DNA from: a virus
IMG/VR virus record: IMGVR_UViG_3300021963_000090
Coordinates: 14,282 to 78,281 of that record
Length of the DNA: 64,000 bases
Reading direction: 5' to 3' (one strand)
In this document: positions 35,711 to 59,437 of the stretch, in pieces
Layout: each line of letters opens with the position of its first letter
Position numbering within the stretch: the first letter of the stretch is position 1
The notes under the pieces: model-generated
What the model saw: the letters and a program-made list of their open reading frames with translations, nothing else
Databases searched by the model: none
Told to the model about the DNA's origin: nothing
Made by a program: the position numbers and the translations under genes

Positions 35711-36640
35711 TTAAAGTGGATAACGAATTATAACAATTCCAGATCCACCAGCGCCTGTTGTTCCAGAGTCTCTAATTCCTCCGCCGCCAGAACCAGTATT
35801 TGCTATACCATTTCTATTTTGACTATTTGTACTAGAGTTAGATGATCCCATTCCGCCGATTCCATTTTTCATAGAGCCTACCCAAGAACCACCAGATGCA
35901 CATCCTCCTCCACCTGCTGCATAAAATTGAGAGCTTCCGCTTATAGAATACTGTAAACCGTTTCCACCTTCTCCGCCTATGCCATTAGTTACAGTGTTAT
36001 TAGCATTTGTTCCTGCGCTACCTGCCCCACCGCCACCGCCGCCAGACCAATTGTCTCCTCCAGATCCAGGCCTTCCTTCTCCTCCATTGTTACCTTGCCC
36101 AGATGTTCCTGAACCACCAGGTCTGCCAGTACTTGTATCGTCTCCTCCGCCTCCACCACCTGAACCGCCAGGTCTGCCAAATCCGCCGCCAAGTCCGTCG
36201 TTACCAGTTGCTGGTGGATAATTATTGCTTGAAGGATGAGCCCCACCGCCACCGCCTCTTATAGCTGTTACACCAAATGCAGATGAATTATTTCCATAAT
36301 TTCCTACTTGTCCTGGATTGCTTGAAACACCGCCTGCGCCTACAACTATTGAATAATTTGAAGTATTTACTTGATATTGTGAAGAATATATAAGCCCTCC
36401 AGCGCCACCACCGCCACCAACTTGGCCTCCTCCGCCTCCGCCACCTGCGACAATTAAATACTCTATTGCTCCAGAAATTTCTGTGTTAAAAGTAAAGCTT
36501 CCAGGTGTTGTAAAAGTATGTATTTTATAGCCTCCAGCGTTTGTAATTGTTCCACCAGTTCCGCCAAGACCTTTGTTGGTTGCATTTTTTATTTTGCCTT
36601 GGGAGCCGAATGATCCTCTTACGCTATTAATAAATGGCAT
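35711..36640 (-). CDS. Glycine-rich adhesin-like protein (copy A)
   Basis: Poly-Gly tracts, YKIHTFT, EYLIVAGGGGGG and C-terminal GGSGIVIIRY; paralogue of 42762-43685. Confidence 0.75.
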   Translation of the reverse strand: MPFINSVRGSFGSQGKIKNATNKGLGGTGGTITNAGGYKIHTFTTPGSFTFNTEISGAIEYLIVAGGGGGGGQVGGGGGAGGLIYSSQYQVNTSNYSIVVGAGGVSSNPGQVGNYGNNSSAFGVTAIRGGGGGAHPSSNNYPPATGNDGLGGGFGRPGGSGGGGGGDDTSTGRPGGSGTSGQGNNGGEGRPGSGGDNWSGGGGGGAGSAGTNANNTVTNGIGGEGGNGLQYSISGSSQFYAAGGGGCASGGSWVGSMKNGIGGMGSSNSSTNSQNRNGIANTGSGGGGIRDSGTTGAGGSGIVIIRYPL

Positions 36641-36649
36641 TTTTATCCT

Positions 36650-38869
36650 TTAGTAGTTTAGATTTGAGTTTGCAAAAACAATCCAACTGCTTCCTGATCT
36701 AATGAAAGTAAATGAGAATACATCTATTTTATTTGCAGAAGATGTTGGTAGCGGAGCCTGACCATTTGGCCAACGAATTGTTTGATTTGTTCCACTAATC
36801 TGAATAGTTGTTGGAAGATATCCAGTTGAGCCTTGAGTTACAAGTACGTTTACTGTCATAACCTTATCATTATCTGTTGGCATGTTAGTAAAGTTAAATG
36901 TCATGTTTCCTGTTGGAGCCGTTGAAATATAATAAATGTTTCCAAGTGCCCAATCGCATGTAGCTGTATTTGTAGATAATGTAACAGGAACTAGATTTTC
37001 TCTTAATTCTTGAATATCTACAGTACCGCTAAGAGATACTGTTCCAGTAGCTGTAAGCCCTCCAGTAATTCCTACTGTTCCTGTAGCTGTAATTGATCCC
37101 GAAGTAATAGCGCCAGTTCTAATATCTGCGTATGTTAATGAACCCTGGGAGAAGTCAAGTGTATTAGTTGGCTTTGTTGTTGCACCCTTGAAGAATTTAA
37201 ATACTCCATCTGATGCATCACGCAATACTCCAGCGTATTTTGTTCCGCTTGACACGTATTCACCAACAAGTCCTAAATCGATTGCATCTCCTGTATTGCC
37301 ATCAGCAACGAATACGATTGGAAAAGCCACTTCGAGAGTTTGTACACCAGTTTGTGAACCAGATCCACCGAAGGAAAGATTGCCTGCGATATTTACATCA
37401 CCCTGGATACCGACTCCTCCAACAATTGTTACTGCACCAGTAGATGGTGAAGTTGATGGTGTTGCAATTTCAATATGCATATTGCCAGGACGTACACCAG
37501 TTTTTGGTGGTGTAATTACAACCTGAACATTTTCTTCATCATCAAATCCTCCAGCTGCGAGAACAATTGAGTTATCTGATCCATTTGCTCCAGTAGCAAT
37601 TACTAGATTTCCGTCTCCAGTAGTTATTGCTGGTGCTTCATAAAATATATAACCATCATGTGGTCCTGTTATTCCAAATGTTGTCTGTGAAAATGTTGAG
37701 CCAGTAACACCCATATCGATCCAGCCAGCGGTATCATTTCCAGTATCGGCATAAGCAATAAAGTCTGTTGATGAATTTGCTGATTGGTTATGGATTGCAA
37801 CCTGTGCAAACGGCTCACCATTTAATTCAAATACCGCACCTGGATTTGTTAAGTCTGCAGAAGTTTCAAATGTTCTAGCATTTTGACCTACATATACTGT
37901 TCCAGTAAGAGCTGTATCTCCTACGATATTTACGTTTTGTGAGAAGTCTACTTCTGTTGTTGAAATAACAATTTGCTCGGCACCACTTTGTAGTCCACCC
38001 GCCGCAATAATAATATTATTAGATAAACCAGTAGAATCTGTTGCAAGCACTAGGTTGCCATCTCCTGTAAACTTGTTAACCTGTGAGTTAATAACTGATG
38101 TTAAAGCAATGTTTCCTGCTGTGTATCCTGCGGGAACTGCAACTACAACCTGTGTTGAAGTTGGTGCTGAAACAACTGTATATCGACCTTCTAAGGTCGG
38201 AGCCACTGGAAGAATTAAGTCAAAGATCACTCCAGCAATCATTTGATGTGGAGTTCCAGTAATAAGATTTAGGCTTGAGCCCGCAACGCTATACTGACTT
38301 ACTGTAACAACTCCCGCAATAGCACCTGACATAAATACATATCCATCGCCAGGTCCTGTCAACGAAAATGCAGGGTCATTAAAAGATTGATTAGTAATAC
38401 CCATATCGATCCAGCCTGACTCATTTGTACCATTTGAGGCATACGCAATGAAGTCGGCGGAAGATGATAAACCAGCTCCTGTATTCACAAGGGCTGTTTG
38501 AACAAAACTATTTGAAGATCCTTCAATACCTAAAGCTACATCTGTTAAATCTGCAGCAGTAATAAAGTCTGTAATATCTTCGCCAATTAAAAATGTATCG
38601 AAAGAATCAGACCAGAATGTGAGGGTTCCGTCTGTCTTTAATACTTTGCCTGCTTGACCTTCGGTTGGTGGGATTTCAGAACCTTCCACCATACGTGTCC
38701 AGTAATCTGTATCTGTAATGACTTCGCCAGTTGATGGGACTTCATTTGTATAAATCCAAACAATATTATTATATCGAACAACGTCGTTTAACTTATACTC
38801 TACTTCAGTATCCCAATCCCCTTTCCAAATAAAGCGGATTGATCCAAGATTAATAATTTGCGTTGCCAT
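36650..38869 (-). CDS. Fibre-like structural protein (copy A)
   Basis: N-terminal WKGDW..Y..NDVVRY module, internally duplicated DFIAY..GWIDMG domain, C-terminal IDVFSFT domain; paralogue of 43697-45871. Confidence 0.75.
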   Translation of the reverse strand: MATQIINLGSIRFIWKGDWDTEVEYKLNDVVRYNNIVWIYTNEVPSTGEVITDTDYWTRMVEGSEIPPTEGQAGKVLKTDGTLTFWSDSFDTFLIGEDITDFITAADLTDVALGIEGSSNSFVQTALVNTGAGLSSSADFIAYASNGTNESGWIDMGITNQSFNDPAFSLTGPGDGYVFMSGAIAGVVTVSQYSVAGSSLNLITGTPHQMIAGVIFDLILPVAPTLEGRYTVVSAPTSTQVVVAVPAGYTAGNIALTSVINSQVNKFTGDGNLVLATDSTGLSNNIIIAAGGLQSGAEQIVISTTEVDFSQNVNIVGDTALTGTVYVGQNARTFETSADLTNPGAVFELNGEPFAQVAIHNQSANSSTDFIAYADTGNDTAGWIDMGVTGSTFSQTTFGITGPHDGYIFYEAPAITTGDGNLVIATGANGSDNSIVLAAGGFDDEENVQVVITPPKTGVRPGNMHIEIATPSTSPSTGAVTIVGGVGIQGDVNIAGNLSFGGSGSQTGVQTLEVAFPIVFVADGNTGDAIDLGLVGEYVSSGTKYAGVLRDASDGVFKFFKGATTKPTNTLDFSQGSLTYADIRTGAITSGSITATGTVGITGGLTATGTVSLSGTVDIQELRENLVPVTLSTNTATCDWALGNIYYISTAPTGNMTFNFTNMPTDNDKVMTVNVLVTQGSTGYLPTTIQISGTNQTIRWPNGQAPLPTSSANKIDVFSFTFIRSGSSWIVFANSNLNY

Positions 38870-39180
38870 TAGTTTACCCTCACTATAAGATTAGACTTGT
38901 CTGCTTCAGACCATTCGAATTCTAATTCTCGTGTTGTAAATGTCCATTCACGATAATCAGTACTTCTACGATTTTGATCTGGCAGTACTACTTCTGTTGT
39001 TCCATCTTCTATAATTTCTAAAGACAATTGTCCAGAAACTGGAAGATATTTAAATCCATAAAATGATCCAAGATTTGATCCTGGAATCTGTTGCCAATAA
39101 TCGCCTGTCCATTCCCATGCAATTTCGCCAAGAGTGTAGGTGTCACCTACAGATGGCGTTGCTGGAAAAGTAACTGGCAT
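38869..39180 (-). CDS. Small adaptor-like structural protein (copy A)
   Basis: N-terminal FPxxPxxG..WxWxGxxW module; paralogue of 45875-46237. Confidence 0.65.
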   Translation of the reverse strand: MPVTFPATPSVGDTYTLGEIAWEWTGDYWQQIPGSNLGSFYGFKYLPVSGQLSLEIIEDGTTEVVLPDQNRRSTDYREWTFTTRELEFEWSEADKSNLIVRVN

Positions 39181-39192: not shown

Positions 39193-39678
39193 TTATACTT
39201 CAACCCATAAGTCGTCGTAGTATATAAATAACTTTGCTATAGAAGAATTGTACCAGATATTGCCTTCTATTGGACTTGTAGGGGCTGTTTCAGATACTGT
39301 TACTGTAGATCCCGCCTCTTCCGCTGTCAAAAGTATCTTATTGTTGTCATCGTCGTAGGACGCTGTTATATTTGTATGGCTGGCATGTTCAAAGAGCGGT
39401 GCTATGGCATCTTGAATTTGCTCAGTACTAATAGTGGCAGTTCCAGTAAGCAAAATTTTATTATTATCGTCATCATATGATGCTGTTAAATTAGTATGAC
39501 TTGAGTGATTTAGTAGAGGAGCTACAAAGTCCTGGATCTCTTCCTGTGTTAAAACTGGGTCTTCTTCAGAGCTTGAATAAATACGCCATGCCGTTCCGTC
39601 CCAAGCAAAGGTGCGGGTACCAATAGTAACCTGCTGTCCATTAGTAGGATTTGACGGGAAATTCAAGGCTGAGGTCAT
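39193..39678 (-). CDS. Small structural protein with two IQD..YDDDNNKI repeats
   Basis: FP..P..W N-terminal module, tandem repeat, C-terminal APxxPxxGxxWY module. Confidence 0.65.
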   Translation of the reverse strand: MTSALNFPSNPTNGQQVTIGTRTFAWDGTAWRIYSSSEEDPVLTQEEIQDFVAPLLNHSSHTNLTASYDDDNNKILLTGTATISTEQIQDAIAPLFEHASHTNITASYDDDNNKILLTAEEAGSTVTVSETAPTSPIEGNIWYNSSIAKLFIYYDDLWVEV

Positions 39679-39785: not shown

Positions 39786-41396
39786 ATGGATATTATGAAA
39801 ACCGATAAAATAGTAATAGTTGGAGGCGGATCTGCTGGCTGGATGACTGCTGCTACATTAATTAAAGCTTTTCCGAATAAAGACATTTCAGTCATTGAGT
39901 CTAAAGATGTTCCTACTGTTGGTGTAGGAGAGTCAACTATTGGTGGAATAAGAACATGGACCAGATATATAGGGCTTGATGAATCTACCTTCTTCAAACA
40001 AACCGATGCCTCTTTAAAACTAAGTATTAAATTTACAGATTTTTATAAAAAGGATGGCGGGTCATTTCATTATCCATTTGGACAGGCTGATGTTATTAAC
40101 AATAGAAATCCATTTTTTGACTGGCAATTAAAAAAATATTTTTATCCAGAAACTCCAATTGAGGATTTTGTAAGATGCCTTTTCCCAGCTTCGGCTTTAT
40201 TTGAAAACAATAAATTTTCTTTAAATAATTCAGGGGATTTTGATCACTTTGATGCCGCTAACGATGTTGCGTATCATTTTGATGCAACTAAATTTGGAGT
40301 GTGGCTTAGAGAAAACTATTGTATTCCTAATGGAGTAAAACATATTATAGCAACTGTTTTAGAAACACCAAACGACCAAAACGGAATTAAGCACCTTGTC
40401 CTAGATAATGAAGATATTGTTGAAGCTGATTTATTTATTGATTGTACTGGCTTTAAAAGTCTTTTGCTAGATAAGGCTTTAAATGAACCATTTGACTCGC
40501 TATCCAAAATGCTACCAAACAATAGGGCTTGGGCTACTAGAATTGAATATGAAAATAAAGATATTGAATTAGAAGGTTTTACTAACTGTACAGCTATTGA
40601 AAACGGATGGTGCTGGAATATTCCTTTATGGTCTAGAATAGGAACTGGCTATGTATACTCTGATAAATTTGTAACTCCAGAAGAAGCAAAAGAAGAATTT
40701 AAAAGATATCTAATGTCGGACAAGATGGTTATTCCACGAACTAAGGAGCAGGTAGATGCTCTTGAGTTTAAAGAAATAACTATGCGTGTTGGAATACATA
40801 AAAGAACTTTTGTTAAAAATGTTGTAGCTATTGGCTTATCGGCTGGCTTTATTGAGCCACTTGAGAGCAACGGACTGTTTAGTGTTCATGAATTTTTATT
40901 TAATCTTATAGACATACTACAGCGTGGAGAAATATCTCAATTTGATAGGGATATGTATAATGTAAGTACTCGTGACCTATTTGATCAATTTTCTAAATTT
41001 GTTGCCCTTCACTATGCCCTATCGCATAGAGATGACACAGAATACTGGAAAGACATTAATACTAAAGAATTTAAAGATGAAATTTCAAATGATCCGTATA
41101 CCCCAAATAGGACGAAGGCTGGGGCCTTCTATGATATTATTGGGCGTTATATGGAAGAATGGTTTCATCCATACGGAATGGCTGGTATTACATATATAGC
41201 AACAGGAATGAATCTTCAAATGATAAACGACAATAGGATTGCAAATATGACTTATAGATATAAGCGTGACTACTTATCAGAAGCGGATGCCATTTCTGAA
41301 ATATGGGAAAACAAAAAAGCTAAATGGAATAAGGCTGCAGAATCGTCTCCTAGCCTTAAAAAATTTTTAGAGGACACATTTTATGGCAAAGAATAG
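39786..41396 (+). CDS. Flavin-dependent halogenase (tryptophan halogenase/PrnA family)
   Basis: GGGSAGW FAD motif, GVGEST, SLKLSIKF (catalytic Lys position), FIDCTG, WCWNIP (WxWxIP), FIEPLES. Confidence 0.92.
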   Translation: MDIMKTDKIVIVGGGSAGWMTAATLIKAFPNKDISVIESKDVPTVGVGESTIGGIRTWTRYIGLDESTFFKQTDASLKLSIKFTDFYKKDGGSFHYPFGQADVINNRNPFFDWQLKKYFYPETPIEDFVRCLFPASALFENNKFSLNNSGDFDHFDAANDVAYHFDATKFGVWLRENYCIPNGVKHIIATVLETPNDQNGIKHLVLDNEDIVEADLFIDCTGFKSLLLDKALNEPFDSLSKMLPNNRAWATRIEYENKDIELEGFTNCTAIENGWCWNIPLWSRIGTGYVYSDKFVTPEEAKEEFKRYLMSDKMVIPRTKEQVDALEFKEITMRVGIHKRTFVKNVVAIGLSAGFIEPLESNGLFSVHEFLFNLIDILQRGEISQFDRDMYNVSTRDLFDQFSKFVALHYALSHRDDTEYWKDINTKEFKDEISNDPYTPNRTKAGAFYDIIGRYMEEWFHPYGMAGITYIATGMNLQMINDNRIANMTYRYKRDYLSEADAISEIWENKKAKWNKAAESSPSLKKFLEDTFYGKE

Positions 41397-41670
41397 GTAT
41401 GAGTGGGTATATGCTTTATCTAGAATGAAAGATAGATCATATTGGAATAGGCCAAATACTGTAGAATTTTTTGCTTTTATGACCAAGCTTTCTATTATAT
41501 TTCCAGGGCTTTTATTTGGTAAGCAATGGTGGTGGCTATATATATTTGCTTTAGTTTCTAGTTTAGCTTTAATTTGGTCTTCTACAGTAAAGACCCTGCC
41601 TACAATAATCTTGTTTAATATAGGATGGTCTATATTAGCATCAGCTGCAATAATTAAGGCTTTAACATGA
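41383..41670 (+). CDS. Small membrane protein (~3 TM)
   Basis: Three hydrophobic segments; overlaps the halogenase stop. Confidence 0.65.
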   Translation: MAKNRYEWVYALSRMKDRSYWNRPNTVEFFAFMTKLSIIFPGLLFGKQWWWLYIFALVSSLALIWSSTVKTLPTIILFNIGWSILASAAIIKALT

Positions 41671-42392
41671 GCAAAAAAGAACCAGTGATTGTATATTGGT
41701 CTCCATACTCTAACCCACACAGGGTTTCTTATGTTAACCTATTATGTGAGCCCCCTAAAAAAGTATTAACCACAATAGGATCACCCGTTTCTAATAAAAA
41801 AGCATCTTATCATAACTGCAGATCTCTTCAAAATTTAATGAAAAATACTTACATCATACCAGCACCACTGTCATCTAAATTAAAAATATCTGGATCTTTT
41901 GAAGAGCCATTTCTAACTACAGATAACAATCTATGGAATGCTAGAAGTGCTTCTTTAGATAAAAGATACTCTGTTGACTATGATTTTAGCTGGATCTTTT
42001 TTTCAGAAGAGCAGGTTACTCTTAGAGAGACACATCCATATATGCATAATACGGCTTTTTCAAAATCTGGATATCTAGCATCTGGATCATTTGAAATTAA
42101 TAAATGGTTTAGGCCAATAAATATAACATTTAACTTATGGGAAGACCATAATTCTATTGAGGTTATTGAAAAAGAGCCATTATGTTATGTAGAGTTTGAA
42201 ACATTAGACAACAGGCCAGTTATTCTTAAACAATTTGAATTGACAGAAGATATGTATAATTACTGCACTCAGGCTTTAATTACTTCAAAAAACATTCTGT
42301 CTTTTGAATCACTAGAGTCTTTATATTCTAGATTTATAGGTTCAAATAGACATAAAAAAATAGCTAAACTAATAAAGCAAAACCTACTATAA
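41667..42392 (+). CDS. Hypothetical protein (probably distantly related to 51756-52469)
   Basis: C..L...NTY, G.FEI.KWFRP, EPL.Y pattern; dUTPase-like beta fold suspected. Confidence 0.6.
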   Translation: MSKKEPVIVYWSPYSNPHRVSYVNLLCEPPKKVLTTIGSPVSNKKASYHNCRSLQNLMKNTYIIPAPLSSKLKISGSFEEPFLTTDNNLWNARSASLDKRYSVDYDFSWIFFSEEQVTLRETHPYMHNTAFSKSGYLASGSFEINKWFRPINITFNLWEDHNSIEVIEKEPLCYVEFETLDNRPVILKQFELTEDMYNYCTQALITSKNILSFESLESLYSRFIGSNRHKKIAKLIKQNLL

Positions 42393-42393
42393 A

Positions 42394-42765
42394 TTAACTT
42401 TCTTGCTCTGAGTATAACCACATATCTTCTGGCTCCACCCATATTTTATTTATCGAGATTGGCAGATTTAATTCTTTTATTGTTTTTATCAATTCTTTTT
42501 GTGAATTTGGACCGTATAATGTATTAATTTGTCCATTGATATTAAGGAGATAAAACTCTGCATATGGAGACCATGATGCATATAATCCTTGTCCTCCGCT
42601 TGCCTCCCATATAACTTCCCAAATGTCTACTTCTTCAATTGTAAGTTCACGAGAATAGTCCCAGTCTTTTTTAGGTGGTAGTTGCAATGTATTACTATCC
42701 ATCCAGCTGGGTTCAAAGACTTCTCCGAAGTCAGTAAATATGTTATAGGTAGATTTAAATCTCAA
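42394..42765 (-). CDS. Hypothetical Trp-rich protein
   Basis: 123 aa; TTG start overlapping the stop of the glycine-rich gene. Confidence 0.6.
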   Translation of the reverse strand: MRFKSTYNIFTDFGEVFEPSWMDSNTLQLPPKKDWDYSRELTIEEVDIWEVIWEASGGQGLYASWSPYAEFYLLNINGQINTLYGPNSQKELIKTIKELNLPISINKIWVEPEDMWLYSEQES

Positions 42766-43685
42766 ATCTGGTATCTAACTATTACTACTCCAGATCCACC
42801 AGGTGATGTTATATCTCCAGAGCCGTGGCCTTGGCCACCAGCTCCTCCACCTAAATTGCTACTTGGAGGATTTAATGTTCTATTGGATTCGGAATGACCT
42901 GTTCCACCGCCACCGTTTCCACCTGCTCCTGGAGTATTTGCTCCACCGTTATGTCCTCCACCGCCACCTCCGCCGCCGTAAAAGGTATTAGAGCCAGAAA
43001 TAGAATTTGCTATACCAGATCCTCCTGCTCCATTGGTGCCACCAGAACCTGGATAAGCTTGTCCAACTGCGCCTGCTCCGCCTCCACCGCCTGAAGCGTG
43101 TTGTGATGCTGACGGGTGGTTTGATCCTCTACCGCCAGAATTTCCGTAACCAGTAAATCCAGCAGGAGATGTTTGAATCGCAGAACCTCCGCTCTGACCA
43201 CTTCCTGAGCAAGGTGACCAGCATGCTCCGCCTCCACCGCCTGATCCACCATTAGCTCCTGGTAAATTTGAGTTAGTTCCAGAACCTCCACCGCCACCAA
43301 TTGCTGTTAAACTTCCAAAAGAACTATTGTTACCATTAGGAGCCTGACCACCATAACTATTTATAGTAGAAGTTGCACCTCCAACAACAACTGAATACGG
43401 ATTTGCAGCTAATGAATAGTTGCTTGAATATATAATTCCTCCGCCGCCTCCGCCACCTCCATGTGCTCCGCCTCCGCCGCCTCCGCCAGCAACAACAAAT
43501 ATTTCAGCGTTAATTGGAAGGCCGTATGAATCTAAAGCAAAATTTTCTGTGCCAGATGTAAAAGTGTGTGTTCTATAACCGCCAGCGGTAGAAATTGTAC
43601 CACCAGAAATCATAAACTTACTTCCAACACGTTTAGATCTTGATTGTGGCCCAAAAGAGCCTCTTATGCTGCTTACAAATGGCAT
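42762..43685 (-). CDS. Glycine-rich adhesin-like protein (copy B)
   Basis: Same framework as 35711-36640 with different inter-Gly loops. Confidence 0.75.
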   Translation of the reverse strand: MPFVSSIRGSFGPQSRSKRVGSKFMISGGTISTAGGYRTHTFTSGTENFALDSYGLPINAEIFVVAGGGGGGGAHGGGGGGGGIIYSSNYSLAANPYSVVVGGATSTINSYGGQAPNGNNSSFGSLTAIGGGGGSGTNSNLPGANGGSGGGGGACWSPCSGSGQSGGSAIQTSPAGFTGYGNSGGRGSNHPSASQHASGGGGGAGAVGQAYPGSGGTNGAGGSGIANSISGSNTFYGGGGGGGGHNGGANTPGAGGNGGGGTGHSESNRTLNPPSSNLGGGAGGQGHGSGDITSPGGSGVVIVRYQI

Positions 43686-47128: not shown

Positions 47129-47129
47129 A

Positions 47130-47624: not shown

Positions 47625-47628
47625 TTAA

Positions 47629-49015: not shown

Positions 49016-49227
49016 TAAATTGTTCCTCCGTCAAACGTATTTGTTGTTGTACTAGCAATTATACTATATACTACACTATCAAGGATACCATCGATCTCTC
49101 CACCGTCATGAGATGTATTAGAGGCAGGCTCGGCGAGACCACTTGTAATGGTTCCATCTTCTGAATATTGTCCAGCATTTACCACTGACAATGTTGATAA
49201 CTTAAGGGTCATTATACTACTCTCCAT
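49015..49227 (-). CDS. Small protein ending in DGG motif
   Basis: ~65-70 aa; coupled to neighbours. Confidence 0.5.
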   Translation of the reverse strand: MESSIMTLKLSTLSVVNAGQYSEDGTITSGLAEPASNTSHDGGEIDGILDSVVYSIIASTTTNTFDGGTI

Positions 49228-51710
49228 CCGTAACTAGATCCAGAATATAGCAATGAGACTCCGCCAAATGCCACGTCTATATCGAGATTCTGTACTGTTC
49301 CATTTATTTTATTTGAATTAGAGCTTAAAGTTATATTATTAATTGCTGCTGATCCTGTTGAATCATATACATATATTCCATCTCCCAATGCAGGGGATGC
49401 TGGTAAAGTTAATGTTCTAGCAGAACTTGTATCTACAAAGTATCTATGCGCTGACTCTAGCGTGATATTAGATGAAACTTCTAATGAAACTATAGAAGAG
49501 CCATCGGCACCATCAGCACCAGCTGGACCCTGTGGTCCTGCGGGACCAGTTGCGCCTTGCTGTCCAGTAAATCCTGGTGAGAACTCAACCCAGAAACTAT
49601 CATGATAAATATATGCACGACCAGTTGCTGTGTTATACCAGACTTGTCCTGCCAATGGGTTTGTTGGTGGAGTTAAGCCAGGCTGAAAATCTCCTGGAAT
49701 ACCTTGTGGGATTGAAAAATTAAATATAGCATCAGATGTTGTTCCAACATTTTCTATTGTAGCATCTGATGAATATGATCCAGTTTCTACAGTTCCTACA
49801 GCAAGGGTCGATGCTCGACCAGTCTGTAGCTCAAAATCAAATATCGCATCGCTGGTAGTTCCTACATTTGTAACAGTTGATGGATTACCAAAATCTACAT
49901 CTACTACATCTCCGATTTCAATTGTTGATCTCGGTCCCGCTGGAATTTGGAAATCAAATACTGCATCGCTTGTGTCCCCTGAATTTGTTACAGTTGCTGG
50001 ATTGCCATCTAATACAGTTGTTACTTCACCAACTTCTATTGTTGCCGCTCTACCTGCGGGAATCTCAAAATCAAATACTGCGTCAGATGTGTCTCCAGAG
50101 TTAGTTACTGTTGGAGGCTGTCCATATAAAACATCTTCTACCGTTCCAACCTCAATGGTTGCTGCACGACCTGCAGGAATTTCAAAATCGAATACAGCAT
50201 CGCTGGTATCTCCGCTATTTACTACTGTTGGCGGATTTCCAAATAATACTGTGTCTACTGTACCTACTTCAATAGTTGAAGCACGGCCTGCTGGTATTTC
50301 AAAATCTAATATTGCGTCTGTTGTTGTGCCAACATTTGTAATTGTTGGAGGCTCACCAAATAGTACAGTAGTTACTGTGCCAACTTCCATTTCTCCAGTA
50401 TCGCCCTTATCTCCCTTTTCAATTACTAGTTGCCAATTAGGAGTAGATGGAGCTGTGCCTGCTGGACTATTTACTTCATTTAATCTCCAGAGAGATCCTT
50501 GATATGTTACGCCATCGTTTTCAAGATAAGAAACACCTGAGTTCCAGGCCCCTTGATATTCTAGGAATGCTGGACCTTGAGGACCTGTTGCACCTGTTGC
50601 AACTGCTTCAACCCAGTATGAATCATAATACACATATAATTTTGCATTTACTGTATCAAACCATGCGTCGCCTTCTGTGGGTAATGCAGGAGCAGTTGCA
50701 GATACTGTAACTCCTCCACCTGTTCCTCCGCCGCCTCCGCCGCCAGAGCCAGAAATTTCTACCCAGAATGCTCCATCATAAATATAAAGTATTGCTGTAT
50801 CTGAATCTAGCCATAGATCTCCAACATTTGGATCAGCTGGAGCGGTAGAAGAAATATCAGCAGATGTTCCACCTGTTGATGTTAAACTTAATTCTTTATT
50901 TACTGAGTCATACTCTACAGTTATATTTGTATGTGTTCCATTTGTGATAATTGCTGCTGCAGTATCTTGAATACGCTCATCAATATCTAATTCTGTTTGT
51001 GGGACAAATCCATTTTCGTCTAGAGAAGCAACTCCATCAGGATTTCCAACATCTGATTGTGGTACATATGTATCTGGCAAAGAATTTCCGAGACTTGCGA
51101 CGGCTTCATCGGTATACTCATTTGCTGTTGTAATAGCATTTGTTATAGCAGTAGAAACTGTTGTTGCAAAATTTGAATCGTCATTAATTGCTGCAGCAAT
51201 CTCATTAAGAGTATCTAAAAGCCCTGGGGCAGCATCTACTAGATTCGATATAGCCGTGGTTACATAAGATTGTGTGGCTATTGAAGATGTGTCAACAGAT
51301 AAGGTAATTGTATTTGCTTCATCATCGTACGATTTTACTATACCTGTGCCAGCCGTTAATGCTGTAGCAATTGCATCCATAGCCATTTCGTTGCTATAGG
51401 TTGCAGATAGGTTTATTTTGTTATTGTCATCGTCATATGTGACGGTAATTCCAGAATGAGTTCCAGCGGTTAAAACTCCACCGACTATATCTTGTATTGC
51501 TTCTGTATCTACAGATCCGCCTTCAAGGGCGGCAACTCTGTAGTCAAGGCTTGTGGCTACGGCAGAACCGTCGACGCCTACCTTAGCCTGCAAGGCCTCA
51601 ATTGCATCGTTGGCATTAGCGTGTTGCGCTGAATGCGAAACCGCTTGTACCGAATCCGTAGATTGCGGGTTAACTAGAGAATCTAAATCCTCTGGGAAAT
51701 TTGTTGCCAT
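49212..51710 (-). CDS. Long fibre-like protein with collagen triplets and six 39-aa repeats
   Basis: H..AND.I.ALQAKVG anchor, LDTLNEIAAA, GVASLD, APxxPxxGDxW modules, GxxGxxG stretches. Confidence 0.75.
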   Translation of the reverse strand: MATNFPEDLDSLVNPQSTDSVQAVSHSAQHANANDAIEALQAKVGVDGSAVATSLDYRVAALEGGSVDTEAIQDIVGGVLTAGTHSGITVTYDDDNNKINLSATYSNEMAMDAIATALTAGTGIVKSYDDEANTITLSVDTSSIATQSYVTTAISNLVDAAPGLLDTLNEIAAAINDDSNFATTVSTAITNAITTANEYTDEAVASLGNSLPDTYVPQSDVGNPDGVASLDENGFVPQTELDIDERIQDTAAAIITNGTHTNITVEYDSVNKELSLTSTGGTSADISSTAPADPNVGDLWLDSDTAILYIYDGAFWVEISGSGGGGGGGTGGGVTVSATAPALPTEGDAWFDTVNAKLYVYYDSYWVEAVATGATGPQGPAFLEYQGAWNSGVSYLENDGVTYQGSLWRLNEVNSPAGTAPSTPNWQLVIEKGDKGDTGEMEVGTVTTVLFGEPPTITNVGTTTDAILDFEIPAGRASTIEVGTVDTVLFGNPPTVVNSGDTSDAVFDFEIPAGRAATIEVGTVEDVLYGQPPTVTNSGDTSDAVFDFEIPAGRAATIEVGEVTTVLDGNPATVTNSGDTSDAVFDFQIPAGPRSTIEIGDVVDVDFGNPSTVTNVGTTSDAIFDFELQTGRASTLAVGTVETGSYSSDATIENVGTTSDAIFNFSIPQGIPGDFQPGLTPPTNPLAGQVWYNTATGRAYIYHDSFWVEFSPGFTGQQGATGPAGPQGPAGADGADGSSIVSLEVSSNITLESAHRYFVDTSSARTLTLPASPALGDGIYVYDSTGSAAINNITLSSNSNKINGTVQNLDIDVAFGGVSLLYSGSSYGWRVV
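49701..50392 (-). repeat. Six tandem 117-bp (39-aa) coding repeats
   Basis: TIEVGTV.....P.TV.N.G.TSDA.FDFEIPAG x6; DNA period 117 nt. Confidence 0.9.
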
Positions 51711-54868: not shown

Positions 54869-57145
54869 CTATGCGCTCAGATCGCCCAATACAACCCAAG
54901 AATTAAGTGCTCGTTTAATAAGTGTAGCGCTGCTCCACTGAGTACGTAATTTTAATCCAGGGGTGGCATTAGGAGTAAATGAAGTTCCAGCTATAGTAAC
55001 TTGTGAAGCACCTGTCTGTAAAATATCGCATGTAAATCCTACAGGGAAAGAAGCGGAATCTGTTATTGTTAATGTTCCGCCTGCAGACATTTCAATAAGT
55101 CTATTAGAGTCTATCGGCAAAATAGTGTAGCCTGCAGATTTAGAATTTATTGTTATTGTATTATCAGACTGCACAGAAATTGATCCACTCATGGATGAAT
55201 GGAACTGGCAAGCATAATAAAGATTATCTGGGGCATCTTGAGGAAGCTCTACTAGGATATGACCTGCTTGTGCTCCGCCATTTGTTATTCCAGTTGAATA
55301 TACGTTGCCTGAGCTATAAGCACCTGACACTGTTTGAATCCAGAATGGGTGTCCTGTAGCATTAACATGTATTCTATATTTCTTACCTTTTTCAAAAGTG
55401 ATTAATCCGTTAGATACACCGTTTACTAGATAAGCTCCAGATCCAGAGTTTGTAATATAATAATCAACCGAAGGATCTGATAGGTTTAACTTTAAATCTA
55501 ATGCTGTCTGTGTTGCAGTTGATACTGGCTTATTTGCATCTGTAGTGTTATCAACATTTCCTAGATCCACCATTGATTTTGTAATACCTGAAACTGTTCC
55601 AGTAAAAGTTGGTGAAGCAATTGGTGCTTTTGCACCCAATGCCGTTGTGACTGTAGATGCAAAAGATGCGTCATCATTTATAGCCGCTGCGAGTTCATTT
55701 AAAGTATTTAATGTTGTTGGAGCAGTGTCTATTAAATTAGATATCGCTGTAGAAACATAAGACTCTGTTGCAAAGTCTCCGTCTGTTAAAGCTGCATTAA
55801 ATTCTACCAATGTTCCGCTAATAGCATTTCCGCCTACAGTTATATTAAATCTTGTTCCGCCAGCATTTGTTGCTAAACCAGAAACATATCCAATTCCAGA
55901 AGTTGCTACTGATATAACGCCAAGGGAGCTAATGTTTATTCTTCCGCCTCTGTCTAGCCCTGCTTGATAAATTGGTATATTATTCTGACCAGCTAGACCC
56001 TCAATATTATCTACAGCCGAGATAGAAGTAATTCCAGTGCCTAGACCAATTACTTTATTTGTTAAAGTTTGAGCCGCAGTATTTCTTGTAACTTCTGATG
56101 CAAGTTCTGAGTCTGGAATCTTTCCATTTGAATCTAATGAAGCTACACCGTCTACTGCGCCAACATCTGATATTGGCACATAGTTCTCTGGAAGAGAGTT
56201 ACCTAATCCTGCAACTGCCTGGTCTGTATACTCATTTGCATCCGCAATATCTCCCATAGTTGCAATATGGTTGTTTGCAATGGTTGAATCATTTAAGTAT
56301 GCTCCACCTACACCATGTTGTAATACTAAGTTTTGATCTGCAACAATAGCAAACACATCGTCTCCTGGCTCTCCACTAATTCCAGAAACAATTAGCGTTC
56401 CACCTCCTGGACCATGTAAAACTCCATCTGACCCAAATTGCCAGTAATTATCCCAAGACTCTTCATGACTAAATACATGAGCTGCTCCTCCAACAAATGA
56501 TGCTGGTTCTCCATTTAAATTTGCTGTAATAGTTTGTAGACCAGAACTTGGTGAGTCTGTTGTAACAGAATCAACAGTGACTATATCTCCGCCTGGATAA
56601 AACATCGTATCGCCTACATAAATATTTGCTGTATTGCTAACTACAAAAGAAGTGTTGCTTGTTTCGTTTAAATTTGTATAAGTGTTAATAATTGTTTCTG
56701 GTCTTGTACTAATATATACAGATCTTGCTCCGTCAGATACACGAACATTATTTCTTTCTCCACCAATAAATAGATCTGCACCTGAAGCATCTTGAGTTCC
56801 ACCACCACGAATATGAATGTGGTTTGGAGCTGTAGGATCAATAATTAAATACTGATCTGTATTAATGTCTGCATCTGGAACTAACTCTATTGTTCCATTG
56901 CCATATCCGTCACCAGATGCTGTTCCAGCACCAATAATCTGTACGCCATCAAATGTGATATCTCCAGTATTAGTACCATTAGAAGAAGGGTCTATAGAAG
57001 GAAGACTAGCCCATAGAGTTGTTCCGTCTCCTATTTTAGTTATTTTATTTGTTAAGTCATAGCCAAACTCACCAGACAATAATGGTGTTGTACGGGCCGC
57101 CCATTGTGTAGCAGTTCCTCTTTTTACTCTTATTGTAACTGACAT
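54869..57145 (-). CDS. Fibre protein (Mtd-like anchor) with cupredoxin-like domain
   Basis: IRVKRGT..GE.G...KIGDG anchor; GHPF...LYYACQFHSSMSG; C-terminal LRTQWSSATLIKRALNSWVVLGDL. Confidence 0.75.
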   Translation of the reverse strand: MSVTIRVKRGTATQWAARTTPLLSGEFGYDLTNKITKIGDGTTLWASLPSIDPSSNGTNTGDITFDGVQIIGAGTASGDGYGNGTIELVPDADINTDQYLIIDPTAPNHIHIRGGGTQDASGADLFIGGERNNVRVSDGARSVYISTRPETIINTYTNLNETSNTSFVVSNTANIYVGDTMFYPGGDIVTVDSVTTDSPSSGLQTITANLNGEPASFVGGAAHVFSHEESWDNYWQFGSDGVLHGPGGGTLIVSGISGEPGDDVFAIVADQNLVLQHGVGGAYLNDSTIANNHIATMGDIADANEYTDQAVAGLGNSLPENYVPISDVGAVDGVASLDSNGKIPDSELASEVTRNTAAQTLTNKVIGLGTGITSISAVDNIEGLAGQNNIPIYQAGLDRGGRINISSLGVISVATSGIGYVSGLATNAGGTRFNITVGGNAISGTLVEFNAALTDGDFATESYVSTAISNLIDTAPTTLNTLNELAAAINDDASFASTVTTALGAKAPIASPTFTGTVSGITKSMVDLGNVDNTTDANKPVSTATQTALDLKLNLSDPSVDYYITNSGSGAYLVNGVSNGLITFEKGKKYRIHVNATGHPFWIQTVSGAYSSGNVYSTGITNGGAQAGHILVELPQDAPDNLYYACQFHSSMSGSISVQSDNTITINSKSAGYTILPIDSNRLIEMSAGGTLTITDSASFPVGFTCDILQTGASQVTIAGTSFTPNATPGLKLRTQWSSATLIKRALNSWVVLGDLSA

Positions 57146-57399
57146 TATGGTGTACCGCCGTCAACAACACCAGAGGCTGGAATTTCTACTGAGTCTACAG
57201 AGAACAGAGATCCATCATATGTATGAACGTGATCTAATAGTCCTGTAACTGCTCCTGAATTAACTGGATTCCATTGTGTTCCATCATAGAATCTTAGCTC
57301 TTCCGATATTGTATTGTAATAAATATCTCCAATACGTGCTGATACTGGATCATCTTCTAAAGCTACTGCATGTAAAGGGACTAATCTTTTTACAGACAC
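57145..57399 (-). CDS. Small adaptor-like protein ending in DGG motif
   Basis: GDIYYNT...FYDGTQW module, H.H.YDG, C-terminal VDGGTP. Confidence 0.6.
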   Translation of the reverse strand: MSVKRLVPLHAVALEDDPVSARIGDIYYNTISEELRFYDGTQWNPVNSGAVTGLLDHVHTYDGSLFSVDSVEIPASGVVDGGTP

Positions 57400-57411
57400 T
57401 TATTGCCCCCT

Positions 57412-58617
57412 TTATCCTACGATAACTACTTTATATGCTCCAGAAGCAGGTGCTGCTGTAAATCCTATTGTCACCTGACTTGTAGAATTTCTTACTACAT
57501 CAGTTTCTACCGTATCGTATGTTGCTGCATCATAAACTTGAACCTGAACTTCACGAGTTCCGAGGTTGTGTGTAATTGCGTATGTTAAAGCTGCTCCGTC
57601 ACCGATTGTAGCTACATATTTACGAGCTATATCGTGATAAGATCCTCCAACAAGTCCTACCTGCCACTTATCTGCTGTTTCGCTCCATAGAAGTTCAGCA
57701 TCTGCTTCAGTTCCACGATGTACAACAATTCCAGCATCAAGAGAGGGTGAGTTCTCTTCTGGCATACTAGAGTTAAGATTAATCTTATTATCTGAGATAT
57801 TAACTTGTGTTGAGTTTACTGTATTAATTACACCAGTAACGTTTAGGTCTCCGCCAACGTTAAGGTTATTGGTAATTGTTACATCATCTGGCAAACCAAT
57901 TGTGATTGCCGCATTTTCTGAACCTGAGCCAGAAACAGTAATTTCATTTGTAGTTCCAGCAATTGTTGCTACATAGTTACCAGTTGTCTGTGTTCCAAGG
58001 TTTACATTCTTGATAGATACAGCACCAGTTGTTACTGTAAAATCTGCGTCTGCAAATGATGCGACACCCTTATTAGTTGTGCTTGCATCTTCACCAGCAA
58101 TTGTAATTGTGTTATTTGTTACTGCAACATCAATTCCTTCTCCGCCAGATACTGTTAATGTGTCTGTAAGAAGATTTACTGTGTCAGTTCCTGTATCACC
58201 TGCGATTGAAAGTGTTGTTGCTACGCTTACAGTTCCTGCTGCTGTCAAACGACCTTGAGCGTCTACTGTAAATGTAGGAATTTCTGTTGTTGATCCATAT
58301 GAACCAGGTGTTACGGCTGTATTATCTAAATCTATTGTTGTGATTCCTGTAGAATCAACATATGTCTTAGTTAAACCAACTCCGCCTTCTACATATGTCC
58401 CAATTGCGTCTGTAATTACTTCTAGAGAAGCATTCATTGCTACCCATGGACCATTTGGTGCTGCTAGTCCATTGTAGTAGTACATCGTGTTATTCGATGT
58501 GTCATAGTAAATTTGTCCAGTAACTGCAGCTGATGGTGCAGAGCTTAACCCCTGGATGCGGGCATTCTGAAGTTCATTCTTGTTAAGATTGATATCAGTT
58601 ACAAATAATCTTGCCAT
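57412..58617 (-). CDS. Fibre-like structural protein
   Basis: NELQNA, GQIYY, GSYGS...PTFTVDAQGRLT, ITHNLGT motifs. Confidence 0.7.
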   Translation of the reverse strand: MARLFVTDINLNKNELQNARIQGLSSAPSAAVTGQIYYDTSNNTMYYYNGLAAPNGPWVAMNASLEVITDAIGTYVEGGVGLTKTYVDSTGITTIDLDNTAVTPGSYGSTTEIPTFTVDAQGRLTAAGTVSVATTLSIAGDTGTDTVNLLTDTLTVSGGEGIDVAVTNNTITIAGEDASTTNKGVASFADADFTVTTGAVSIKNVNLGTQTTGNYVATIAGTTNEITVSGSGSENAAITIGLPDDVTITNNLNVGGDLNVTGVINTVNSTQVNISDNKINLNSSMPEENSPSLDAGIVVHRGTEADAELLWSETADKWQVGLVGGSYHDIARKYVATIGDGAALTYAITHNLGTREVQVQVYDAATYDTVETDVVRNSTSQVTIGFTAAPASGAYKVVIVG

Positions 58618-58631
58618 TTTCTACTTCTCCC

Positions 58632-59090
58632 TTAAGACAGGTATGCTGTCCCACCGAATGGTTGAGCCATAGTCAGTGTAATTTTGTTAATACTATTATA
58701 GTCTATTCCAGTTTCTAATATGTCCCCAGCGCTGTTTTTGACAGTTACATTTGGGTTATACCCCATATTATGGGTAATCTCAAGAGCCCAGTAAGTTCCT
58801 TGATCAGTGACCTGATTAATTGAGAACGGATATGTAAGAGTGCTTGTACTTAGTGGATATGCGGTAGCTCCAGCCCAAGTAAGGTCGTTTGGCTTTGGCC
58901 CATAAAAATATGTAGTATTTTTGTCATAATAGAAATCTCCTTCAAGCCCTAGGTTTTCTGCTGGGACTCCATTGCCATTTAATATTGTTTTACCTCTTGG
59001 ACCTTGTGGACCAGAAGTAGAAATTACAATATCGTTAACGGTTTCTGTAATTACAACTTTAGGAATACTATCATTATTTACAATTGGCAT
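58632..59090 (-). CDS. Small structural protein (GPQGPRG; G..GDFY; I.HN.GY.P)
   Basis: Motifs shared with phage fibre anchor proteins. Confidence 0.6.
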   Translation of the reverse strand: MPIVNNDSIPKVVITETVNDIVISTSGPQGPRGKTILNGNGVPAENLGLEGDFYYDKNTTYFYGPKPNDLTWAGATAYPLSTSTLTYPFSINQVTDQGTYWALEITHNMGYNPNVTVKNSAGDILETGIDYNSINKITLTMAQPFGGTAYLS

Positions 59091-59437
59091 TAGATTGTAA
59101 CCGATCTACTTAATGTAATAAATCCTTCAAGCAACTTTATTTTATTGCTATTGGAATCTATAAGCATTATGTCATATGAAGATTTTGGATAGAACAATTT
59201 ATTAGTTTGAGTTGGAGTCATCTTAATGGTTAATTTGCCAAGGGCTGGGTCAATTGTGATTCCGCCAGTTGGTGAAGTTAATGTAAATGCTAACTTACTT
59301 CCACCCTTTGTATCACGAACCTGCATCTTTGCAGATGCACCAACAAGAGATATCGGATCGTCATTAGGATCCTTATACTCTAAAATAAATGAAAAGGTAG
59401 TATTTTGATCTACTTCCCAGTTTTTCTGTCCTGCCAT
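59090..59437 (-). CDS. Ig-like/BppU-like structural protein, first gene of the fibre array
   Basis: L.G.SA.MQVR...YD..L....KLLEG pattern. Confidence 0.6.
   Translation of the reverse strand: MAGQKNWEVDQNTTFSFILEYKDPNDDPISLVGASAKMQVRDTKGGSKLAFTLTSPTGGITIDPALGKLTIKMTPTQTNKLFYPKSSYDIMLIDSNSNKIKLLEGFITLSRSVTI

Follow-up and report, generated by a model that had tools for sequence, protein, structure and literature searches.

Recurrent pairs of terminal motifs suggest plug-and-socket joints between separately encoded fibre parts of aquatic phages

Organization of the fibre gene cluster

The stretch of DNA analysed here (the window, 64,000 nt) comes most likely from an uncultured long-tailed aquatic phage and contains a fibre gene cluster with all listed parts on the minus strand. 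Short N-terminal segments that follow a putative C-terminal socket domain of the preceding gene product are called leaders.

57412-58617, minus strand: 401-residue fibre protein preceding the first DGG adaptor, with the C-terminus ..APASGAYKVVIVG
57145-57399, minus strand: 84-residue adaptor with a P..P..G.IYY repeat at its start and the C-terminus VVDGGTP
54869-57145, minus strand: 758-residue fibre starting MSVTIRVKRGT, with N-terminal Mtd_N (Pfam PF18454, E 6.4e-8, residues 5-43)
49212-51710, minus strand: 832-residue fibre with internal P..P..G repeat copies, ending ..YGWRVV
49015-49227, minus strand: 65-70-residue adaptor tagged twice with DGG (HDGGEI at -30, C-terminal FDGGTI)
48221-49015, minus strand: 264-residue fibre starting MSAIIQLKRGT, with N-terminal Mtd_N (PF18454, E 5.6e-16) and a putative C-terminal type-A socket domain (48224-48643)
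47629-48210, minus strand: 193-residue tip, a type-A leader of ~23 residues (48142-48210) fused to a YGI-ending domain
46598-47624, minus strand: two leaderless YGI-domain paralogs of 164 and 176 residues, 27-33% identical to the 193-residue tip
45875-46237, minus strand: 120-residue adaptor with an N-terminal FP..P repeat and a C-terminal hairpin ..FEW....LLVEVGA, ending ..FEWDTENPTHLLVEVGA
43697-45871, minus strand: 724-residue fibre starting MATQLIDLGNIRFIWKGDW, with an N-terminal MATQ..LG.IRF.W domain and a putative C-terminal type-B socket (43700-44119, HMM score 188)
42762-43685, minus strand: 307-residue tip, a type-B leader (43638-43685, HMM 41.0 bits) and Gly_rich_2 (PF21722, E 5.2e-12)
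42394-42765, minus strand: 123-residue protein (..FKSTYNIF..EDMWLY) of a kind that recurs after Gly-rich tips, candidate tip chaperone
39193-39678, minus strand: 161-residue protein of P..P..G repeats, upstream side of pair (d); its copies are 34-47% identical to the 832-residue protein
38869-39180, minus strand: 103-residue adaptor ending ..FEWSEADKSNLIVRVN, a paralog of the 120-residue adaptor (35% identity, E 3e-23)
36650-38869, minus strand: 739-residue fibre starting MATQIINLGSIRFIWKGDW, with an N-terminal MATQ domain and a putative C-terminal type-B socket (36653-37072)
35711-36640, minus strand: 309-residue tip, a type-B leader (36593-36640, HMM 49.4 bits) and Gly_rich_2 (PF21722, E 4.4e-16)

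The Mtd_N profile scored 58.6 bits in the 264-residue fibre and 32.8 bits in the 758-residue fibre (Pfam gathering cut-off 26.3), and the Gly_rich_2 profile 60 and 46.7 bits in the two tips (cut-off 24.3). The 193-residue tip was the sole ORF of the window to score with the type-A leader HMM (21.2 bits), and its alignment with the leaderless paralogs begins at residue 21-24; paralogs devoid of a leader also come after a leader protein at two other loci. The C-terminal signature of the 401-residue protein, AP..Y[KR]V.[IV][IV]G, also precedes DGG-ending proteins at three other loci. Homologues of the 123-residue protein were found behind Gly-rich leader proteins at six further loci, twice at one of them, and its candidate role as a chaperone is proposed by analogy with Pam3 gp25 (PMC9608196).

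Recurrence of motif pairs within the window

A preliminary description of this DNA had proposed that four matched pairs of terminal motifs link consecutive structural genes, namely (a) a DGGxx tail before I(Q/R)xKRGT, (b) a FEW-containing hairpin before a MATQ domain, (c) a C-terminal domain before a short leader and (d) two proline-rich motifs. All four were located where they had been placed, on the minus strand. Their recurrence within the window, offered as evidence, is present but results mostly from paralogy: a three-gene cassette is duplicated (35, 70 and 43% identity between copies), the 724- and 739-residue fibres being 70% identical paralogs. Since this cassette holds both copies of (b) and two of the three (c) cases, recurrence is weaker evidence than it appears. 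The difference in cargo noted for (c) was borne out, with a Gly_rich_2 domain in the 307- and 309-residue tips and a YGI-ending domain in the 193-residue tip.

Pair (d) was found once in the window, and both of its sides are copies of one ~32-residue repeat, P..P..G..[WY]....W.[WY].G..W, present in at least seven proteins in N-terminal, internal and C-terminal positions. As a matched docking pair it was rejected, the same repeat being seen on either side of one junction. The paralogy of (b) and of two (c) cases, and the single repeat seen twice in (d), would also be expected if the motif pairs were chance resemblances or a mere outcome of cassette duplication in this genome. That reading stands for (d); for (a), (b) and (c) it is refuted by two-way adjacency statistics from hundreds of other contigs, and as a general account it is scarcely credible.

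Adjacency statistics across phages, a check named in the preliminary description, placed junctions (a), (b) and (c) far above chance. Adjacency is near-obligate in both directions, and the parts outside each junction are exchanged freely, upstream and downstream. Since the loci are partly related to one another, the counts given below overstate the number of independent events, and the shuffle and Fisher tests take no account of phylogeny.

DGG tails precede Mtd_N-headed fibres

In the window, the endings VVDGGTP and FDGGTI directly precede the fibres starting MSVTIRVKRGT and MSAIIQLKRGT, respectively, and both gene pairs overlap as TAATG. Elsewhere, a hydrophobic-DGGxx ending preceded Mtd_N-headed fibres at 25 of 43 distinct junctions, compared with 8/838 background ORFs; when tightly coupled junctions only were considered, the values were 25/28 and 22/316, in line with the initial claim for this pair. 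Additional internal DGG tags occur 20-30 residues before the protein end. The tail, often with one or two such tags, would have as its partner the Mtd_N cap that heads the fibre encoded next, and the repeated tags might allow one adaptor chain to contact each of the three subunits of a trimeric cap.

At 24 of 32 distinct DGG junctions a GGAG or GAGG core falls within the glycine codons, 8-13 nt before the next ATG, a Shine-Dalgarno distance, so that conservation of DGG may be partly RNA-level. The stronger proposition, that the ending is nothing but an in-frame reading of the Shine-Dalgarno sequence of a translationally coupled Mtd_N gene, seems very improbable. A core is present in the last 21 nt of 130 of the 316 other tightly coupled junctions, but only 22 encode GG, and the aspartate and the preceding hydrophobic residue are conserved too. 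The GG is kept without a core at 8 of the 32 junctions, among them that of the 84-residue adaptor, whose codons are GGC GGT, and three loci have a separate Shine-Dalgarno sequence after the stop codon. Bbp9 of phage BPP-1 ends DLGGIA, a terminal GG motif, 15 nt upstream of mtd, and the internal tags are 20-30 residues away from the protein end.

A C-terminal hairpin precedes the MAT domain, with a natural swap

The hairpin-bearing 103- and 120-residue adaptors are followed by the 739- and 724-residue fibres, respectively. The claimed adjacency of pair (b) was upheld in other genomes, where a C-terminal hairpin preceded a MAT.NLG.IKF.W domain at about 45 of 49 distinct junctions, with at least five distinct upstream contexts, as against 1/1,014 background ORFs. 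The hairpin, F.[FW]S....L[IV].., would thus be the partner of the MAT.NLG.I[KR]F.W domain. Where the MAT domain instead comes after an Mtd_N cap, the preceding protein lacks the hairpin and ends [DN]GGAP (4/4 cases). This is a natural swap, in which the upstream tail motif changes together with the downstream N-terminal domain.

A C-terminal domain precedes short leaders with exchangeable cargo

The 739-, 724- and 264-residue proteins share one homologous C-terminal domain, and the proteins encoded next start MPFINSVRGSFG.., MPFVSSIRGSFG.. and MPLLTTQSARSYG.., respectively. This domain of ~110 residues accounts for 6,072 of the protein library's clusters; it ended 0-8 residues from the stop codon in 112/112 places and was C-terminal in 149 of the best 150 of those clusters. 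The next gene encoded an M(S)P-hydrophobic leader in 101/105 cases, compared with 7/1,410 other ORFs, all seven being nearby leader proteins (six tandem copies further downstream and one start-codon artefact). Reverse searches starting from the leader DNA patterns alone recovered the domain directly ahead of the leader gene in 100 of 103 type-A loci and in 33 of 40 type-B loci, most of the remaining type-B cases following another leader protein.

Each of the two leader HMMs, type A and type B, scored only behind its own domain type. Leader identity correlated with that of the C-domain encoded just before (rho 0.39, Mantel p 0.001; 0.33 using different-cargo pairs only), while no correlation was found between leader and its own cargo (0.05) or between C-domain and cargo (0.02). 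Gly_rich_2 cargo, for instance, is found with either leader, type A where the upstream domain is type A and type B where it is type B. The cargo falls into 37 single-linkage families and includes at least eight domain families (Gly_rich_2, DUF7483, fn3, beta-propeller, the ALK/LTK glycine-rich domain, Laminin_G_3, SPRY and the YGI domain), and the N-termini of the upstream proteins are of a dozen or more mutually unrelated kinds.

Domain and leader lie within ~400 nt of each other, a distance at which linkage alone could yield some covariation, yet the equally adjacent cargo has none.

Flanks shuffled on either side of each junction could instead reflect conserved, co-inherited module boundaries at which fibre genes recombine, with no mutual binding, and since domain and leader form one contiguous DNA block, linkage would be expected. 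We consider this unlikely. It is the protein sequence that is conserved, at identities as low as 28-30% over a confidently folded domain; the exchange boundary falls inside a gene, at the leader/cargo border, rather than at the gene border; at one locus the DGG tail is kept despite another gene inserted ahead of the Mtd_N gene; and the strict C-terminal position (149/150 library proteins) is unexplained by recombination alone.

The domain of the 264-residue fibre (C-domain HMM score 157) was modelled by AlphaFold2 with a pLDDT of 93.6, and its residues 140-263 match positions 70-195 of the 197 of phrog_5906, a family of unknown function (E 8.4e-27). Foldseek returned CBA120 TSP4 (probability 0.54) and T4 gp10 (0.51) with TM ~0.3-0.36, and VIA the TNF-like knob of the Pa223 capsid spike (best, Z 7.3) and the XD of CBA120 TSP4 (Z 5.8), all below a safe shared-fold level; judging from the model, the fold is not clearly that of any known docking domain. 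In the AlphaFold2 model of the 309-residue tip (mean pLDDT 83.0), residues 1-27 have a pLDDT of ~50 and lack secondary structure, whereas most of the rest exceeds 80, so that the leader is predicted to be an unstructured tail of low confidence in a model that is otherwise confident.

Taken as a joint, the compact all-beta domain at the extreme C-terminus of the fibre would be the socket. The plug would be the flexible N-terminal leader of the protein encoded next (15-25 residues, M(S)P and hydrophobics, ...G..[FY]G), bearing interchangeable receptor-binding heads, and the phage of the window would carry both cognate subtypes, A and B. The rule of junction (c) holds in eight cultured phages, cultured carriers include S-BM3, P-SSM7, S-H38 and CRP-3, and the hosts of carriers are aquatic bacteria, namely cyanobacteria, roseobacters, SAR11 and actinobacteria. 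Tail-fibre chaperones, such as Pam3 gp25 (PMC9608196), bind the distal ends of fibres and commonly have their genes right behind the fibre genes, and leader-bearing proteins could by that token be assembly chaperones or transient partners rather than mounted virion parts. This appears improbable, because the cargo is large (to >1,300 residues) with lectin-like or adhesin-like domains, Gly-rich cargo resembles the receptor-binding part of Pam3 gp24 and not the Pam3 chaperone, and many Gly-rich tips have a separate small chaperone-like gene behind them. The record of S-SCSM1, the virion proteome of which was determined by mass spectrometry, annotates both partners of junction (c), leader protein included, as virion proteins.

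Proposed fibre assembly

Fibres of this kind are probably built from separately encoded pieces, three conserved kinds of junction marking where the C-terminal end of one would hold the N-terminal end of the next-encoded piece, and pairs (a), (b) and (c) are most likely the plugging points. The plug-and-socket grammar of the preliminary description is thus supported by comparative genomics for three of its four pairs and abandoned for (d); physical docking, its stoichiometry and the choice between chain and branch are what we infer from sequence patterns. The term 'branched' was too specific, the data fitting end-to-end chaining and branching alike.

More tentatively, the mounting of fibre parts on one another across thousands of aquatic phages, cultured cyanophages, roseophages and pelagiphages among them, might be specified by gene order and a few mutually exclusive end-motif pairs, at least three of them supported and two more hinted at, although we regard so broad a rule as somewhat doubtful. 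If true, the architecture of a fibre and its true receptor-binding tips could be deduced from sequence alone.

Comparison with known docking systems

In the anchor-branch systems of podophages infecting Klebsiella (KP32, K11 and KP34), and also of G7C, CBA120 and K1-5, a T4gp10-like branching domain receives a conserved N-terminal docking peptide (PMC6872550, PMC13352976). As there, the first protein has the putative docking domain and the next-encoded one has a short conserved peptide at its start, ahead of a receptor-binding part that varies (101/105 leaders; 37 cargo families), the peptide differs by phage group and matches its own docking domain, and parts are exchangeable. The docking domain of those systems, however, lies between anchor and enzymatic domain, not at the extreme C-terminus (112/112; 149 of the best 150 library clusters), the peptide motifs differ, the hosts here are aquatic bacteria, and binding was experimentally shown there and is proposed here. 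No sequence relation to these systems was found, and the fold relation to T4 gp10 or TSP4 XD is weak (Z 5.8).

In T2/T6/S16-type phages the gp38 adhesin sits on the tip of gp37 (PMC3157838). Shared features are a separately encoded adhesin whose gene comes just after the distal fibre gene and whose N-terminus attaches (here presumably) to the fibre C-terminus, a few N-terminal variants matching a similar set of C-terminal subtypes (here leaders A/B, Mantel rho 0.39) and a glycine-rich receptor-binding part. Here, in contrast, the plug would be a leader of 15-25 residues with no folded attachment domain, the cargo extends beyond one family, and the Gly-rich cargo is nearest Pam3 gp24 and the ALK glycine-rich domain, gp38 being absent from the hit list. 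A Pfam scan for gp38/gp37 membership gave Gly_rich_2 only in the 307/309-residue tips and nothing in the 724/739-residue fibres. The parallel with gp37/gp38 extends to the matched subtypes, not to sequence membership in these families.

Mtd_N (PF18454) is the N-terminal domain of Mtd of Bordetella phage BPP-1 and also heads streptococcal prophage hyaluronidases; it occupies the same position in the 264- and 758-residue proteins, and the BPP-1 upstream gene bbp9 similarly ends ..GGIA. No description of a recurring DGG tail on the upstream partner was found in the searchable literature, and Pfam defines no Mtd_N partner.

The best Foldseek match of the 309-residue tip was the Pam3 fibre gp24 (PDB 7ypx, E 1.5e-5, probability 1.0). 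The Gly-rich tips resemble its TNF-like and glycine-rich receptor-binding part (PMC9608196) and have a small gene behind them, as gp25 behind gp24. Pam3 gp24, however, docks straight on the baseplate via its own helical N-terminal domain (PMC9608196), which is here replaced by the short leader, so that the tip would sit on another fibre. No description of joints of kinds (a), (b) and (c) was found in the searchable literature. The docking principle is already known from the Klebsiella anchor-branch systems (PMC6872550, PMC13352976) and from gp37/gp38 (PMC3157838).

Organization of the fibre gene cluster

About 30 minus-strand genes at 35.7-59.4 kb of the window make up the fibre gene cluster, which belongs to an uncultured phage with a long tail. 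The cluster lies upstream of a portal/protease/capsid/adaptor block, of minor tail genes and of a 2,171-residue ORF that probably encodes the tape-measure protein. A megablast search with this region returned no match among cultured phages, none of them being close at the nucleotide level, and its closest relatives are IMG/VR metagenome contigs. All-against-all protein comparison identified a three-gene cassette in two copies (103/739/309 and 120/724/307 residues; proteins are named here by length), with full-length identities of 35%, 70% and 43% gene by gene. Both cassettes also occur on two related contigs, which makes the duplication an old one with neither copy lost since. Plus-strand ORFs (39786-42392) sit between the two cassettes.

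The preliminary description had proposed that fibres are assembled through four motif pairs, each joining the C-terminus of one protein to the N-terminus of the next-encoded one: (a) a hydrophobic-DGGxx tail and an I(Q/R).KRGT start; (b) a hairpin and a MAT.NLG.I[KR]F.W (MAT or MATQ) domain; (c) a terminal domain, hereafter the socket, and a short leader followed by variable cargo; and (d) two proline- and tryptophan-containing motifs. All four pairs were found where they had been placed, and the motifs do recur within the window, but for pair (b), and for two cases of pair (c) out of three, this is due to the duplicated cassette, and these paralogous cases provide no independent counts. Pair (d) was ruled out as a plug and socket, since both of its sides are copies of one repeat of about 32 residues, P..P..G..[WY]....W.[WY].G..W, which occurs in at least seven proteins, whether N-terminally, internally or C-terminally, and meets itself at a single junction, leaving no matched pair. 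The adjacency of the motifs across phages, which had been put forward as a check of the proposal, was far over background for pairs (a), (b) and (c).

The socket domain is followed by a leader on the next gene

In five cultured phages with the socket domain (S-BM3, DSL-LC01, CRP-3, CRP-738 and S-H38), the next annotated gene begins with M-P-hydrophobic or a close variant, a start that heads quite dissimilar proteins, and the same socket-then-leader order was found in P-SSM7, S-SCSM1 and S-H9-2. At 112 socket places on IMG/VR contigs the domain ended 0-8 residues before the stop codon and the next gene followed after 4-15 nt. A regular expression for the leader was too loose (53/569 background hits) and HMMs were used instead; these scored at least 12 bits on 75/79 followers of type-A sockets and on 26/26 followers of type-B sockets. 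In a background of 1,410 other ORFs there were no hits with the type-A HMM and seven with the type-B HMM, namely six tandem downstream leader proteins and one start-codon artefact. The window itself holds exactly three socket proteins and exactly three leader-scoring ORFs, each directly behind a socket protein. Reverse searches of IMG/VR with leader DNA patterns alone gave a socket immediately upstream in 100/103 assessable type-A loci and for 33/40 genuine type-B leader genes, most of the remaining type-B genes lying behind another Gly-rich leader protein in tandem. Each HMM missed the leaders of the other subtype, which we read as subtype specificity; the common outline M-P-hydrophobic ... 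G..[FY]G is thus a by-eye description.

The third leader of the window is borne by the 193-residue protein (47629-48210), which corresponds to its two downstream paralogs with an N-terminal extension of about 23 residues. The three tandem paralogs (46598-48210) all end in YGI and only the first has a leader, a layout also seen in L037 and L042 (L numbers denote compared loci from other phages or contigs). The YGI-ending family had no Pfam or PHROG match, and the three paralogs might form a mixed trimer held by a single leader. Some loci (L097, L098, L095, L106, L130) have two or three tandem leader genes after one socket gene, and P-SSM7 (L439) has two consecutive socket-ending proteins and then one leader protein, arrangements that bear on the number of tips per fibre end.

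The leader varies with the upstream socket and not with its own cargo

Behind the leader, 103 proteins fell into 37 single-linkage cargo families, with Pfam names that include Gly_rich_2, DUF7483, fn3, beta-propeller repeats, the ALK/LTK glycine-rich domain and Laminin_G_3; SPRY cargo is known from a record annotation. The socket is likewise preceded in its own chain by a dozen or more unrelated N-termini, including the MATQ domain, Mtd_N, a collagen-annotated protein and TNL.L.KP-type starts. Leader identity correlated with upstream-domain identity (Spearman 0.39, Mantel p 0.001; 0.33 for different-cargo pairs only), the corresponding values being 0.05 for leader against own-chain cargo and 0.02 for domain against cargo. 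Gly_rich_2 cargo has a type-A leader behind a type-A domain and a type-B leader behind a type-B domain. Because the leader tracks the upstream domain and not the cargo, the co-inherited unit is the socket plus leader, spanning the gene border, and the exchange point lies within the downstream gene.

The 307- and 309-residue tips match Gly_rich_2 in Pfam. In the model of the latter (mean pLDDT 83.0), residues 1-27 have pLDDT of about 50 and are without secondary structure, and most of the rest exceeds 80; the structure nearest to its body is the part of the Pam3 fibre gp24 that binds the receptor, ahead of the Bxb1 tail tip and the ALK glycine-rich domain. The virion proteome of S-SCSM1 has been measured by mass spectrometry, and in its GenBank record the fibre that bears the socket and the leader protein are each labelled 'virion protein'; the leader protein, ORF226, is listed in the supplement of the S-SCSM1 paper, and its virion label comes from the GenBank note only.

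One further family of 123-150 residues accompanies Gly-rich tips:
42394-42765, minus strand: possible tip-specific chaperone, with the motif ..F[KR](S/T)T.NI....EDMWLY, after Gly-rich leader tips

Members follow Gly-rich tips in L093, L094, L099, L129, L130 and L133 and are absent after the first cassette of the window; by analogy with Pam3 gp25, the family may be a tip-specific chaperone. In DSL-LC01, a phage unrelated to that of the window, an annotated tryptophan halogenase gene (L002 4812-6360) lies directly after a leader-bearing tip gene, an arrangement that may point to a connection of halogenases with fibre tips.

Family and predicted fold of the socket domain

The socket domain belongs to no Pfam family, its sole match being phrog_5906, of unknown function in PHROGs. 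Its profile matched 6,072 clusters at 50% identity in a library of 1.84 billion proteins, and in 149 of the best 150 of these clusters the match reached the last or penultimate residue, in proteins of 174-980 residues. The lone exception among the best 150, library protein P0001, seemingly has two tandem copies, and there the domain is not terminal. Between the 264-residue protein (48221-49015, minus strand) and the 739- and 724-residue fibres, the common part is restricted to the last ~130 residues (28-30% identity, E about 1e-17). No sequence relative was found in the Protein Data Bank, whether the query was the socket profile or the complete 739-residue protein.

The domain was modelled confidently as all-beta (pLDDT 93.6). 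Fold searches gave middling matches, the best of them (Z 7.3) to the C-terminal, TNF-like knob of the capsid spike of Pa223, followed by a baseplate protein of KP1 (Z 5.9) and the XD region of CBA120 TSP4 (Z 5.8), and weak ones to T4 gp10 and gp9; the modelled fold may suggest a docking platform. With matches of this level, assignment of the domain as T4 gp10-like was set aside. Complex prediction for three type-A socket domains and the 193-residue tip, with separate alignments, gave a median score of 0.15, the tool's mark for a call being 0.32.

A DGG tail precedes Mtd_N

The I(Q/R).KRGT start of pair (a) corresponds to Pfam Mtd_N (PF18454). In 80 loci with such a start, the upstream protein ended in hydrophobic-[DNSK]GGxx at 25/43 distinct junctions (background, 8/838 ORFs) and had GG within its last four residues at 32/43. 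These upstream partners range from 61 to more than 480 residues and belong to many families.

A confounding factor is that at 24/32 junctions the glycine codons contain a GGAG/GAGG core, spaced from the following start codon as a Shine-Dalgarno sequence would be, and the tail could be no more than an in-frame ribosome-binding signal for the following gene. We consider this very unlikely, because the core is an insufficient explanation of the motif: of 316 other tightly coupled junctions, 130 have the core and only 22 encode GG, against 25/28 Mtd_N junctions; the Asp preceding the glycines is conserved; eight junctions, including that of the 84-residue adaptor of the window, lack the core, and several have a separate Shine-Dalgarno sequence beyond the stop codon. 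Furthermore, Bbp9 of BPP-1 ends in DLGGIA 15 nt ahead of mtd, and most upstream proteins have one or two extra DGG tags 20-30 residues from the end. In L198 a further gene separates the DGG protein from the Mtd_N gene, and the DGG tail is nonetheless retained.

Two other arrangements were observed around these junctions. In L205, L214, L218, L221 and L232 the joint is serial, with an ..NGGQP protein followed by an Mtd_N-like protein ending in ..NGGGVS and by another Mtd_N-like protein. A possible fourth junction is formed by fibres ending in ..AP(S/T)...Y[KRI]V.[IV][IV]G directly before DGG-ending proteins (57412-58617 with 57145-57399 in the window; also L175, L188 and L219).

A C-terminal hairpin precedes the MAT domain

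In 80 loci with a MAT domain, about 45/49 distinct junctions had the upstream hairpin F.[FW]S....L[IV]..[IV], counted by inspection since the pattern missed obvious cases; its background was 1/1,014 ORFs. In relatives of the window phage an adaptor of 103-121 residues is the upstream partner; in pelagiphage-type podoviruses it is a large putative tail fibre (693 residues in HTVC024P, gp44 before gp43), whose reading frame in related contigs extends over about 490 residues or more before it meets the locus edge. Three more kinds of partner were found. Where the MAT domain lies ~105 residues into a protein with an Mtd_N start, the upstream protein ended in [DN]GGAP in 4/4 cases and in the hairpin in none, and the upstream tail thus tracks the identity of the downstream N-terminal domain.

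A possible fifth adjacency involves small proteins ending in ..LGL(T/S).(D/E)E(I/V).A(L/I).. before adaptors starting with MP..DFP..P:
46335-46586 with 45875-46237: small protein and following adaptor in the window
L169 and L181: the same adjacency in other loci
L006, 3824-4102: a further site

A similar small protein lies behind the MAT-domain protein of HTVC024P.

Proposed fibre assembly and comparison with known systems

The claimed recurrence was partly confirmed and its interpretation partly supported: pair (d) was rejected, and comparative genomics supports a docking reading of the other three. Binding is inferred, and so are the fibre stoichiometry and whether the fibres form chains or branches. 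From sequence comparison, the most economical explanation is that (a), (b) and (c) would be docking interfaces through which fibre parts made from separate genes are joined in the order of those genes. One fibre of the window would run from the 832-residue fibre through a 70-residue adaptor and the 264-residue fibre to the 193-residue tip and its two leaderless paralogs; another would join the 401-residue fibre, the 84-residue adaptor and a 758-residue fibre; and, twice, a 103/120-residue adaptor would be followed by a 739/724-residue fibre and a Gly-rich tip.

For most marine and freshwater phages it is not known which proteins bind the receptor, and annotation lists the fibre genes as hypothetical. 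If the gene after a socket strictly encodes a leader plus a binding head, host-recognition proteins would be identifiable in roseophages, pelagiphages and cyanophages, among the latter P-SSM7, Syn30, S-CAM22 and S-SCSM1; such a rule would also account for head exchange among unrelated phages and define borders for laboratory head swaps in phage-host pairs.

No description of these joints was found in the papers searched. The docking principle is already established in Klebsiella podophages, in which the first receptor-binding protein has a branching domain that partners specifically with a conserved peptide at the N-terminus of the next (PMC6872550, PMC13352976), and in T-even phages, the N-terminal variants of gp38 in T2-type phages being matched to gp37 C-terminus subtypes that form a similar set (PMC3157838). 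Compared with these systems, the joints described here differ in that the socket sits at the very C-terminus, and also in motifs, in hosts and in family breadth, and their novelty is this breadth and the new joint types rather than a new mechanism.
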